The notes under the pieces were generated by a model, which made no database searches, was not told the origin of the DNA, and worked only from the letters and a program-made list of their open reading frames with translations. From an uncultured Verrucomicrobiota bacterium (GTDB lineage: Bacteria > Verrucomicrobiota > Verrucomicrobiia > Limisphaerales > UBA9464), in NCBI GenBank assembly GCA_903896505.1, contig CAITXU010000023.1:2079-66078 (forward strand): 64,000 nucleotides of DNA, read 5' to 3'. The position numbers and the translations under genes are program-made. Numbering within the stretch: the first letter of the stretch is position 1; every line of letters begins with the position of its first letter. Below, in pieces: positions 15,301 through 16,973 of this stretch.

Positions 15301-16973
15301 TTGAAGTCACCACCACCAACCTCCTTGGCCAACTTTCAACCTTCACCGCCGGCCAGCCGGTCTTCCGCTACAATTCCAGGACCAAGGCCTATGTCGGTGT
15401 GACGGGCGCGGAAATCGTGGCGGGTGGAGAAGTGCTATGGGTTTATTCCAACCGTCGGGCTGTGGTCAGCGTGTCCGGCGGAGTGGAGGCACCACGCGCA
15501 TTGACACTGAATGCGGGCTCACAACTCGTCGGTGCCAATGGCCTTCAGGCACACTCCTGGGTGTCCACGTTGCCGGCGGGCGTTCTGGTCTGGCGCTATG
15601 ACGCGACGCGTGGTGCCTGGCAGCCGCCAGAGGGCGTTCCCGACGTGGGGCAGGCGGCCCGTCCACCGCCGTTTCTGGAGGTGGGAGAAGTCGTATTTCT
15701 GGACCTCCAAATCAGTGTGACCCTCCCGGCGCCCGATCCAGCGAAGGCGGTGCTCTTCTACCACCATGACCATGTGGGATCGGTGGCCCTGATGACCGAT
15801 GCACTGGGACGACGCGTGCAGGAGAGCACCTACTATCCCTTTGGTGCCAAACGCGTCGAGGAACGGTCGCTGCCCGGAAAGGAACCCTATGCCTTCACGG
15901 GCAAGGAGCAGGATGAGGAGTCGGGCTTTGTCTGCCTGGGTGCCCGATACCAGCTTCCCGGGTTGGCTCGGTTTCTTTCGGTGGACCCTGCGCTCGCGCT
16001 CGACCCGTCCGCCCGCACCGGGAACCCGCAGGGACTGAACTTTTACTCTTACGGACTCAACAATCCGATCACCTTCGTCGATCCGACCGGATGCGAAGCG
16101 CAGGAGGGCGAGAACAACATGTCGATCGCCTCGGGCGGACCCAACCAATCCAGTGAGGGTCGACCCCAATACCAGACTCCGGCTCCCGATCCGGGTTCGG
16201 TTCCTGAGGTGATTCCCACCTTGCAGGCTTTGCCATCCCAGGGAGTCCTTCGTATGAACGTCAAACCCGGGGTCACTGTGGAGATTTATGCCAAGGCTGA
16301 GGGAAAGTTGTACACAGGCCTTTACGTTGGGATTCCAAAATATGTGGCGGTCGGCTACGAAAAATCAATCGAGGGCGATACAACGGGCACAGCGAAGACC
16401 TGTGACCGGGTTGCGCTTGTCGGCGCTTCGCTTCGAGTCAACTACACGGCCTACAAGAAATGCAGCGACGGAGCACCGCCCAAACAGTACGATGTTAACG
16501 TCCAAAATAAGCCGGACTATAACAAAACCAAGGGCACCTTCCAAGAAGCAGGGAGAAAGCCGTGGGAAGAATCGACCAAGAACAGTCGCAACAACGGGCA
16601 ACTCACGCCACGTCTGGTAACGCAGGGCAAGTGGAGTGAGAATGCCGAGGGCCGCCTGGAGGGCTATGTGAAGGTGGGTGGACGGATTCTTTCGGAGTAC
16701 GAACTTGATACACCCGTCGCCCGCTTTACAGGGACGGCGGATGGAACGCTCAGCTCCTTTGCCTCCAAAAAGGGGACGGTGGTTTCGGCTGGTTACGATT
16801 TCGTAGGCCAGTTGGATGGTGGCATTTTCCTCAAGGTTCCCCCGCAATTGAACGGTCTGATCCAGATTCCGTTTGCCGGCAATGCCAATGTCAACATCCA
16901 GGTCCGGGTCACCGTGGACCTGGCGGTGCTGGCCCGCGAGCACAGCAGTCTTTCCAGTCTCGCCAAACTTTAA
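9303..16973 (+). CDS. Fused TcB-TcC-type toxin: SpvB domain + FG-GAP/VCBS beta-propeller + TcdB mid domains + RHS/YD-repeat cocoon + RHS core + 293-aa variable C-terminal domain
   Basis: ORF track 9150..16973. ATG 9303 gives MNPHARITWLATVAWLMAALGGGLLAAP (signal/anchor). SpvB motif: ISLPSGPGSIEGLGDSFEAQLNTGT...PGRAGTQPGVHLSYNGGAGNGLLGLGWDVGFGMIRRQLDKGFPAY. FG-GAP repeats: SDIDGDGLPDLF, MDFDNDGLVDYV, LADMNGDRMQDLV, QDVNGDGLADLL, ADLNGNGSVDILW. Many YD repeats (YDGMGRL, YDANGN, RYRYDRIGNL). RHS core: FYHHDHVGSVALMTD...YYPFGAKR...PYAFTGKEQDEESGFVCLGARYQLPGLARFLSVDP...NFYSYGLNNPITFVDPTG. Confidence 0.9.
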   Translation: MNPHARITWLATVAWLMAALGGGLLAAPDKSGTSKSAISLPSGPGSIEGLGDSFEAQLNTGTMTYGVGLTLPPGRAGTQPGVHLSYNGGAGNGLLGLGWDVGFGMIRRQLDKGFPAYNESDTFLLGGEELVPLSNVEGDWRCENEGGFQRTRRLPGSGGWEVTDPTGTRHFYGRFAGEGGRWSVVRHPSRSTGTDFDRTYLWALDATVDLHGNRIEYEYTPGVGMLYPSRITWSHWPDPTRPGFTNYHEVTFYYEDRPDVFDDFRATFPVRTEKRLHRVEVASFYDGSRHLVRAYEAEYSYRPEDFIQPPSDSTDLAVSLLKRVVQYGRLGGTNDFLPPLLLEYSPLRLSASELHTLDLPPELDLAEAGGSVQLSDIDGDGLPDLFQTTAFDQRFLLNQGVVARNGLAPTLTWGELQIRPRATDMQLSNPESALMDFDNDGLVDYVQLQDDILGGRSLTVFRNGSDLARHDAEVPGFLTASDVSFDLPALLSLTNAATRQMDLNFDKLTDFVTSEPDFIGQFRCVFRDADGRWQTTTTDYPNDLPNAFTFAWRGEPGQPATFLADMNGDRMQDLVLVEKDGPSLRVRYWPYVSLGVWGEAREMSVAAPDVLTLETADLRDVYIQDVNGDGLADLLMLDGSSDDSRLVLRVNLAGRAWSGPIERNGLPRFRPREVGVPTTVRFADLNGNGSVDILWVNPGLSPGWQWLELMPEGKPNLLRRADNSLGRVMEVTYTTTTEDMIRAREKGFPWQTRTPFPLPVIRRIRTTPGLDLDGVPDAGRSVSTDQYVSEFQYRDPYYDTIEREFRGFAFAQNIAWGDELLLDTNLTTFVKLPAWNQSRTPTGQVSSPTQVTRLRYLTGAPDGIDNDEYPAGASANARYVDEITPRGGREEEPLKGRQVWMETVDGWAMHDPLGGGDFDRGCWLAVSSTNAVERLRMTPDSYVYSRIRQDWKIRRLYRSAFPQPFTALVGDGRRSFTDEVLTPAGLFSTNTIPVTVLPESGRSVSWAVLTQMEEETIEANGLLQSALGHPARAPVMTRKRYDYDNYGNTILEEEDGIVSAGDYDDERFEHFTFALGGEALARWNLRCLAESTVTDENGVFVNRTRSYFDGEPYVGLPLGQMGARGLMNRSEQFVNGSDAVPPLEQISDRAGDPRQPLGKTLTNSRNRFDSSGNQIEWLDPLAQFPGFPTGHARLAKFDPKFNTLAIEERNVVGDGHPDVVLQAEYDHGFAQLVRSVDANGQVGTYHFDQFGRITRVVAPLDTDEFPTLIYEYLHADTQRGRVYRYDVDGILSVCAEERAVSRVVTRQREQHGKPGVYVSLKYTDGMGRTIALASEGDYPGHWVVLEATGISRRGVAVTTWHPYDVRYGKGDQDLPPFNVLWTSAGRPPLQDVAGHAVVNSTVRNDPNGRTIIHFQPPEDFAQLDAPRKLVRTFHLPFESWLMDENDNDPGSDHVGTPDVTRTDGLGRIYDHVEQPRLDDEGRPVADLHRWTTRYWFDLNDHLVRSRDSLGNETWFRYDGMGRLIYLNDPDRGAVWKTYDDGSNEIEGRDAKGQITRLTYDGMNRSLTEDFLDEASSEFSYGRKPDVRYHYDEPAGPMDMGDGTTATATNLRGKLAWVEDHTGEAHYSYDVRGREAWSLRRLPDWQPGVAGDRTNAPLTSFRMAYFYDADNRLVRRVFPDNDEYTYEYSSRNLQTALRGSLGPIVTDATFQPAGGMLSLRFGNGVVTRYEYDPRRRASVFETEGSPSGTPGRLLGYRYQRDASSLITSVEDTRPASSRGAGDLLRNTQRYTYDDLYRLTSVAYNHALPGQPATNGVIRYRYDRIGNLLEQSSDLAHSERGVSLTQLGTLSYGGMAGRTNRIGRLNPEPGPHALTQVSSGNRSLTYDANGNVRQLDGAKCIWDFKNRLVALDDPVVRSDYRYDYRGVRQLRQVTWKPQGPGATNRNFTVMYPFPDYEIREGGQPVKYALFSGRRVAKLTGSFSATARVQRLRLQPGWNLVSLEVTTTNLLGQLSTFTAGQPVFRYNSRTKAYVGVTGAEIVAGGEVLWVYSNRRAVVSVSGGVEAPRALTLNAGSQLVGANGLQAHSWVSTLPAGVLVWRYDATRGAWQPPEGVPDVGQAARPPPFLEVGEVVFLDLQISVTLPAPDPAKAVLFYHHDHVGSVALMTDALGRRVQESTYYPFGAKRVEERSLPGKEPYAFTGKEQDEESGFVCLGARYQLPGLARFLSVDPALALDPSARTGNPQGLNFYSYGLNNPITFVDPTGCEAQEGENNMSIASGGPNQSSEGRPQYQTPAPDPGSVPEVIPTLQALPSQGVLRMNVKPGVTVEIYAKAEGKLYTGLYVGIPKYVAVGYEKSIEGDTTGTAKTCDRVALVGASLRVNYTAYKKCSDGAPPKQYDVNVQNKPDYNKTKGTFQEAGRKPWEESTKNSRNNGQLTPRLVTQGKWSENAEGRLEGYVKVGGRILSEYELDTPVARFTGTADGTLSSFASKKGTVVSAGYDFVGQLDGGIFLKVPPQLNGLIQIPFAGNANVNIQVRVTVDLAVLAREHSSLSSLAKL

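Follow-up and report, generated by a model that had tools for sequence, protein, structure and literature searches.

What is encoded by the last 293 codons of the large RHS-type gene carried on this stretch of verrucomicrobial DNA? The stretch, 64,000 nucleotides (nt) of contig CAITXU010000023.1 from an uncultured Verrucomicrobiota bacterium and referred to below as the window, contains a gene for a fused TcB-TcC-like protein (BC). The C-terminal 293 residues of this protein (nt 16092-16970), referred to as the tail, lie directly after the RHS core. The evidence assembled here makes it likely that the tail is an encapsulated toxin payload, and it represents a new family within a known toxin class rather than a new kind of system. 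More tentatively, the tail may well be the cargo of an encapsulated, self-cleaved and probably non-enzymatic toxin that acts on the envelope or the membrane of its target.

The open frame of the BC gene extends over 9150-16973 (+), 2607 codons without interruption. All homologues, as well as the copy of this gene in the protein collection, start at Met52 (nt 9303), 37 nt downstream of the end of the preceding gene, which is almost certainly the true start also in the window. The frame's first 51 codons (9150-9302) begin inside the tail-collar gene, whose end they overlap, and no homologue has them. Pfam matches in the protein include SpvB, FG-GAP, FG-GAP_3, TcdB_toxin_midN and RHS_repeat, and the domains follow one another as signal peptide, SpvB, FG-GAP beta-propeller, TcdB_midN, RHS/YD shell, RHS core and the 293-residue tail. 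Sequence matches in the PDB comprise TcdB2-TccC3 fusions, TcdB1, YenB, TccC2, Tse5 and Rhs cores. Together, the domain content and these matches identify BC as a fused TcB-TcC-like cocoon protein. Both Asp-containing autoprotease motifs, RFLSVDP and VDPTG, were found in the core. The TIGR03696 match ends at nt 16091, and therefore the boundary NNPITFVDPTG-C, as drawn by eye in the first-pass annotation of this DNA, is correct to within one residue. The same end point and the domain content of BC also bear out the proposal that the region is the C-terminal payload of an RHS/TcC module. Just before the core, the least conserved stretch of the shell was observed (window 15150-15830, BC residues ~2000-2263), with identities of 68%, 59% and 33% in homologues that are 84%, 70% and 54% identical overall.

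The tail itself is an orphan. No match was obtained in Pfam at E<=10, and thus to none of its Tox/Ntox families, in NCBIfam or PADLOC at E<=1, in PHROGs at E<=0.1, or, for the single sequence, among PDB sequences at E<=10. PloI4 (E 1.5), the sole match of the PDB sequence and profile searches, was rejected as noise. None of the motifs HExxH, HxxD, CxxC, HxE and GxSxG is present in the tail sequence, which contains a single His. The earlier impression that no toxin family or motif can be recognized has thus held. When 1.84 billion cluster representatives were searched exhaustively with phmmer, two proteins came back, of which only P0006 is a genuine relative, aligning with tail residues 139-290 at 33% identity. 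P0006 is encoded on a 2.1-kb metagenome contig (L002) where the RHS core ends in ...RDPSG-C and the tail is split into two frames by a frameshift (nt ~1050-1300), which is either a pseudogene frameshift or an assembly error; the two pieces were analysed separately, unjoined. Region-restricted searches in which whole BC proteins served as queries yielded P0003 (77%) and P0004 (64%), and a query with the homologue from the same genus added P0010-P0013.

The distribution of the family is narrow. Six-frame profile searches detected it only in three genomes, all belonging to the genus of the window; the other genomes among the 81 of the same family lacked it, as did 24 more genomes of the same order (among 60 relatives) and 400 genomes sampled across the phylum. 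Back-translated pattern scans of genome and metagenome contig collections revealed no further tails, and when 5.8 billion proteins were searched with a profile for tails standing alone, only a 53-residue fragment was recovered. In total, nine distinct tails are available, forming two subfamilies ~20% identical to each other. All nine are borne by a single BC lineage, which belongs to one genus of Verrucomicrobiota and to its relatives in metagenomes, and on these searches the tail appears to be a genus-restricted orphan family.

The first-pass annotation had also suggested that the tail is a horizontally exchanged A/T-rich toxin cassette, and recent acquisition deserves to be weighed, since tail swapping is well established in RHS genes (PMC3482391) and unrelated tails occur on further BC genes of this bacterial family. 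The GC content (GC) of the tail (56.5%) is lower than that of the BC body (61.4%) and lower than that of every equal-length window of the body, the lowest of which reaches 59.4% (standard deviation 0.009). Hence the DNA is indeed more A/T-rich than the RHS body. The comparison with the genome does not extend this contrast: the genome mean is 58.0%, and 32% of the windows in the 64 kb have a GC equal to or lower than that of the tail. The drop is real relative to its own gene and not unusual for the genome. The A/T-rich string quoted in the first-pass annotation (16491-16532, 38% GC) encodes the Lys/Asn-rich loop piece DVNVQNKPDYNKTK, so its richness in A/T follows from Lys and Asn codons. Much of the difference between tail and body sits at codon position 1 (GC 0.594 vs 0.650), owing to the Lys/Asn/Thr/Tyr content of the tail. 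At third codon positions the drop was present in the window (0.652 in the tail vs 0.716 in the body), but in orthologues it was small or reversed (0.802 vs 0.829, 0.685 vs 0.670 and 0.773 vs 0.768).

The history of the family also argues against a cassette. The nine tails share one BC lineage and co-diverge with it, which points to vertical descent with faster evolution of the tail and not to cassette swapping. No copy was found on another carrier or alone in the 400 phylum genomes, the 81 family genomes, and two contig and two protein collections, and no evidence of cassette exchange was obtained for this tail. A recent horizontal origin is improbable on these grounds, and the suggestion is not retained.

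In three comparisons the identities of body and tail fall together (84/77, 70/64 and 54/22%), and in the closest pair the ratio of nonsynonymous to synonymous substitution rates (dN/dS) reaches 0.15 in the tail, a sign of purifying selection, compared with 0.08 in the body. For these reasons the tail can be regarded as a functional part of the BC lineage that is inherited vertically and evolves faster. Divergence faster than that of the shell, in identity as in dN/dS, is expected of a cargo region. A decaying or non-functional remnant, to which the frameshift-split metagenome copy might point, is hardly credible: the dN/dS of the tail, as estimated from that pair, effectively refutes it, eight copies are intact, and the structural residues are conserved.

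The size and charge of the tail fit those of a cargo. Among the hypervariable regions (HVRs) of TcC proteins, 97.9% are 201-400 residues long and 99.8% are below 40 kDa (PMC7861908). With 293 residues and 31.3 kDa, the tail falls within this range; masses among the five tails measured span 29.5-31.3 kDa, and the isoelectric point (pI) of the folded part is 9.3-9.6 in all five. The composition of residues 1-48 and the AlphaFold prediction agree with the Pro/Ser/Gln-rich linker and the beta-rich region read from the sequence at the outset. A first AlphaFold run with four alignment rows was unusable (predicted local distance difference test score, pLDDT, 42) and its Foldseek output meaningless. 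A second run with seven rows and the linker trimmed reached a pLDDT of 65 and a predicted template modelling score of 0.55. This model comprises 11 strands, five of them of 18-21 residues, a disordered Lys/Asn loop and a terminal helix of 16 residues. The faces of the strands are sharply divided into hydrophobic and charged, e.g., VVIAAGLTLVI vs TEYKEKYGYG. When amphipathicity of period 2 was scored in 240-residue windows over 3591 open reading frames (ORFs) of the genome, the tail ranked first with 0.304 (mean 0.072, 99th percentile 0.18). No hydrophobic helix is present in the tail, where the maximal Kyte-Doolittle mean over 19 residues is 0.91.

Conservation over the nine tails was judged in columns filled in at least nine of ten aligned rows. 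Invariant are C1, C104, C124, eight Gly, five Pro, four Lys (K122, K140, K226 and K227), E70, T119, L256 and N264, and no His, Asp, Ser or Arg is conserved. Most of the conservation concerns Gly and Pro in turns and alternating hydrophobic positions. C104 and C124 mirror each other across a single predicted hairpin, built from strands 101-111 and 116-124, and would form a disulfide staple in the modelled fold. An analogy with bacterial gasdermins, suggested by the N-terminal Cys and the short C-terminal helix, was dropped, as neither PADLOC nor Pfam gave a match and the helix is missing in half of the family.

The main rival to a membrane-acting cargo is an enzyme of unrecognized fold, acting for example on a cell-wall, lipid or surface substrate, with invariant polar residues as its active site. 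E70, T119, K122, K140, K226, K227 and N264, invariant in all nine tails, could serve in this way, and a sister BC protein, described below, bears an enzymatic Tlde1 tail. Several findings speak against it: besides the hairpin pair and the boundary Cys no free Cys is conserved, the residue types named above are not conserved either, turn residues and alternating hydrophobic positions dominate, and neither a profile nor a fold match was found. An enzyme is accordingly unlikely, without being far-fetched. Gly/Pro/Lys-dominated conservation and long two-faced strands are the reasons for proposing a non-enzymatic role at the membrane or envelope, and the cargo is most likely an all-beta fold and not an enzyme.

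Several observations weigh against the membrane-acting reading and keep it tentative. Enzymes make up the majority of the known RHS and TcC cargoes (PMC3482391, PMC7861908). The confidence of the model is moderate, the five models spanning pLDDT 27-65, and a Foldseek search of the pLDDT 65 model against the PDB and BFVD gave no match with a template modelling (TM) score above 0.25. The best scores (0.16-0.25) were obtained with secretins, OmpT/Pla, PsbO and levivirus maturation proteins, which have long antiparallel sheets. No fold can be assigned, and the structural comparison proposed as a check brought no match above this level; similarity to a known pore-former or membrane beta-barrel was likewise not found at this level (TM <=0.25). 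Among the genome's high period-2 scorers are both outer-membrane barrels and soluble proteins, DnaJ being one of the latter, and amphipathicity of this kind cannot tell a membrane barrel apart from soluble barrels or sandwiches whose core is hydrophobic. The subfamily of genomes G401 and G402 scores much lower (0.10-0.16). Finally, the missing immunity gene, discussed below, would be uncommon for a toxin aimed at a related bacterium. That the tail is membrane-active or pore-forming is, on balance, possible but doubtful.

The first residue of the tail is itself a distinctive feature. The core ends in DP[ST]G-C throughout, and the boundary Cys is invariant in eight intact tails and in the upstream piece of the metagenome copy L002. 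The same position is occupied by Q, L, H, R or M in eight unrelated tails nearby (seven loci in relatives and one on contig C96 of the same genome). To judge from these alignments, the Cys may be a trait of this core lineage or a requirement of this cargo. N-terminal sequencing of Tse5 located its cut after the Leu of DPxGL (PMC9637101), and by this analogy the cut here would follow the Cys. A role of the Cys as a lipobox or as an N-terminal nucleophile was rejected, since the Tse5 cut falls after, not before, that position.

A membrane-acting cargo could work as follows. The tail would be the hypervariable-region cargo of a Sec-exported, BC-type polymorphic toxin, enclosed by the SpvB, beta-propeller and RHS shell. 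The aspartyl protease of the RHS core would cut at DPTG-C, after the residue at the Leu position if it behaves like Tse5, creating a new free N-terminus EAQEGENN..., and the basic cargo of ~31 kDa would be set free into or onto the target cell. There, it would probably fold in an oxidising compartment, the periplasm or the cell surface, with Cys104-Cys124 stapling the hairpin, and its long amphipathic strands would probably damage the envelope by membrane insertion or pore formation. The data themselves establish where the tail lies relative to the RHS core, that it matches no known family, that it is under purifying selection, how its residues are conserved, that beta structure is predicted and that no neighbouring gene is specific to it. 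From sequence and model we infer that the tail is encapsulated and cut free by the protein itself, that the disulfide forms, and that the cargo is toxic and acts on membranes. An oxidising compartment is proposed because of the conserved Cys pair of the hairpin and the Tlde1-bearing sister system. The features of the locus are collected in Table 1.

Table 1. Coordinates of the BC gene, its tail and the neighbouring genes in the window
Feature	Coordinates	Strand	Basis or remark
Operon gene 1, secreted protein of ~1070 aa with P-domain, BACON-like and CarboxypepD_reg-like modules	1992..5201	+	Pfam, locus comparison
Operon gene 2, secreted 962-aa protein, no family or PDB sequence match	5198..8086	+	Library scans
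Operon gene 3, secreted protein with phage tail-collar domain	8114..9265	+	Pfam, locus comparison
BC gene, TcB-TcC-like fusion, 2556 aa from Met52	9303..16973	+	Pfam, PDB sequence matches, homologue starts
Predicted Sec signal peptide MNPHARITWLATVAWLMAALGGGLLAAP	9303..9386	+	Read from sequence; kept in all homologues
RHS repeat-associated core (aspartyl autoprotease motif ...RFLSVDP...NNPITFVDPTG)	15831..16091	+	NCBIfam TIGR03696, E 4.5e-18, profile positions 1-75 of 76
Boundary Cys at the Leu position of canonical DPxGL	16092..16094	+	Invariant wherever readable
Pro/Glu/Gln/Gly/Ser low-complexity linker, tail residues 1-48	16092..16235	+	Composition; predicted disordered (AlphaFold)
Folded part, tail residues 49-293, ~11 predicted beta strands, several of 18-21 residues	16236..16970	+	AlphaFold; strong two-residue amphipathic periodicity
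Predicted hairpin bounded by invariant Cys104 and Cys124	16401..16463	+	AlphaFold, alignment; putative disulfide staple
Lys/Asn/Thr-rich loop, tail residues 129-173	16476..16610	+	pLDDT <40; holds invariant K140 and the A/T-rich DNA
Short C-terminal helix DLAVLAREHSSLSSLAKL	16920..16970	+	Shared by the window subfamily and L002; lacking in the G401/G402 subfamily
Secreted 258-aa protein with TSP3 repeat, conserved accessory gene of the BC operon	16988..17764	+	Pfam, locus comparison
Cytosolic ankyrin-repeat protein, not conserved beside the operon elsewhere	17892..19187	+	Pfam, locus comparison

BC is the fourth of five co-directional genes (window 1992-17764), all of whose products have predicted signal peptides. 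The order of the five genes is kept in L030/L031, L032 and L033. In L030 and L033, a divergent Sigma70_r2 gene (extracytoplasmic function type) precedes the operon. The Sec-exported products of the operon are a candidate for a delivery complex that works without TcA. No TcA domain was matched by Pfam in the operon genes, and the TcA families PF18276 and PF03538 were not found in the genome, which is 94% complete; the control genomes were also blank, so this second result is weak.

Two neighbouring genes were considered as cognate immunity genes, and both were rejected. The TSP3 gene starts 11-100 nt past the tail in all seven loci where this is visible. It also lies downstream of BC genes with unrelated tails (L007, L008 and L014), and the identity of its product does not track that of the tail, amounting to 83% where the tails are 22% identical and to 47% where they are 64% identical. 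The ankyrin gene is absent beside the operon at two other loci: L032 has a histidine kinase in its place and L033 a Ser/Thr kinase. No tail-specific immunity gene was found beside the tail at the compared loci.

This absence would suit a tail that is not toxic at all and serves as a binding or adhesion module, or as another structural cargo of a secreted surface complex. The partners of the operon, with modules of the glycan- or receptor-binding type (P-domain, BACON-like, tail collar and TSP3), could be read in the same way, as could a weak, ungapped similarity (28%) of tail residues 51-119 to P0005, a protein with Rib-like surface repeats. P0005 was rejected as a relative: its score sums nine near-identical weak repeats, the invariant residues fall outside the alignment, and the Pfam models miss the tail. 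Moreover, toxin cargo is defined by its place immediately behind an intact RHS autoprotease core, which is where the tail lies, and the size and pI of the tail are cargo-like. A non-toxic role is therefore given a low probability, and a toxin payload remains the preferred reading.

Other BC genes in the neighbourhood illustrate the range of cargoes. A sister BC in the same bacterial family (L014, G421:C3, reverse strand) carries a tail with a Tlde1 domain (E 3.7e-8). Tlde1 is an antibacterial effector acting in the periplasm, and such systems can therefore carry envelope-directed cargo. Between the Tlde1-tailed BC and a P0007-like gene, ~470 nt with a small ORF were observed. This ORF is a possible immunity gene, one without an equivalent at the window locus. 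Five of the seven neighbouring BC tails tested had no Pfam match. A second BC-type ORF of 2361 residues was observed in the genome of the window (G000) on the minus strand of contig C96, with its core at 28034-28606, an unrelated tail of 266 residues and a weaker P0007-like gene ~10 kb upstream.

Compared with known systems, the cocoon has its homologues in the BC components of Tc toxins, and the locus resembles Tc toxins such as Photorhabdus TcdB2-TccC3 in its SpvB, beta-propeller, TcdB_midN, RHS shell and core, followed by a basic cargo of ~30 kDa. It differs in the fusion of B and C, in the Sec signal peptide, in the lack of a TcA domain in the operon (with only the weak genome-wide search to extend this), and in its partners, the P-domain, 962-residue, tail-collar and TSP3 proteins. 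The predicted all-beta cargo with its conserved Cys pair would suit an oxidising site rather than the host cytosol, and Cys replaces Leu in the cleavage motif. The architecture exactly matches that of the TcdB/TcaC-type polymorphic toxins described by Zhang et al. in 2012, which combine a signal peptide, SpvB, an integrin-like propeller and RHS with a variable C-terminal toxin in many phyla (PMC3482391). In contrast to them, the tail lies outside the Pfam Tox/Ntox families and has no adjacent immunity gene. Tse5, an Rhs effector of the Pseudomonas aeruginosa type VI secretion system with a pore-forming C-terminal domain, has a similar RHS core, and its self-cleaved, non-enzymatic, membrane-depolarising cargo is the analogy proposed for the tail (PMC9637101). 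The Tse5 domain consists of 149 residues (Ile1169-Gln1317), is transmembrane and is accompanied by a membrane immunity protein, Tsi5 (PMC9637101). The tail is different in being beta-rich, with ~245 folded residues, no hydrophobic helix, no immunity gene and a delivery other than by type VI secretion.

That such a tail resists recognition is in itself expected. In a survey of TcC proteins, only 43 of 171 HVR clusters had a characterised or predicted domain, 40% were singletons, and the discovery curve was still open (PMC7861908), and therefore a new unrecognisable tail is what would be anticipated; unrecognisable cargo is the norm in this class, and the finding alone is no surprise. If the tail is toxic, it would represent a new toxin fold and possibly a new action for RHS/Tc cargo, that of a beta-structured, non-enzymatic protein in an oxidising compartment. 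A Sec-exported cocoon without a recognisable TcA also raises the question of how widespread environmental BC cargo reaches its target. In its most far-reaching form, the proposal would make the tail the first cargo of an RHS cocoon that is beta-structured and forms pores without being an enzyme, stapled by a disulfide after delivery into an oxidising compartment by a Sec-exported five-protein complex in which the P-domain, 962-residue and tail-collar proteins replace TcA. This combination is rather improbable as a whole. If the TcA-less, pore-forming reading is true, ABC-like toxins would gain a new branch, located in free-living Verrucomicrobia.

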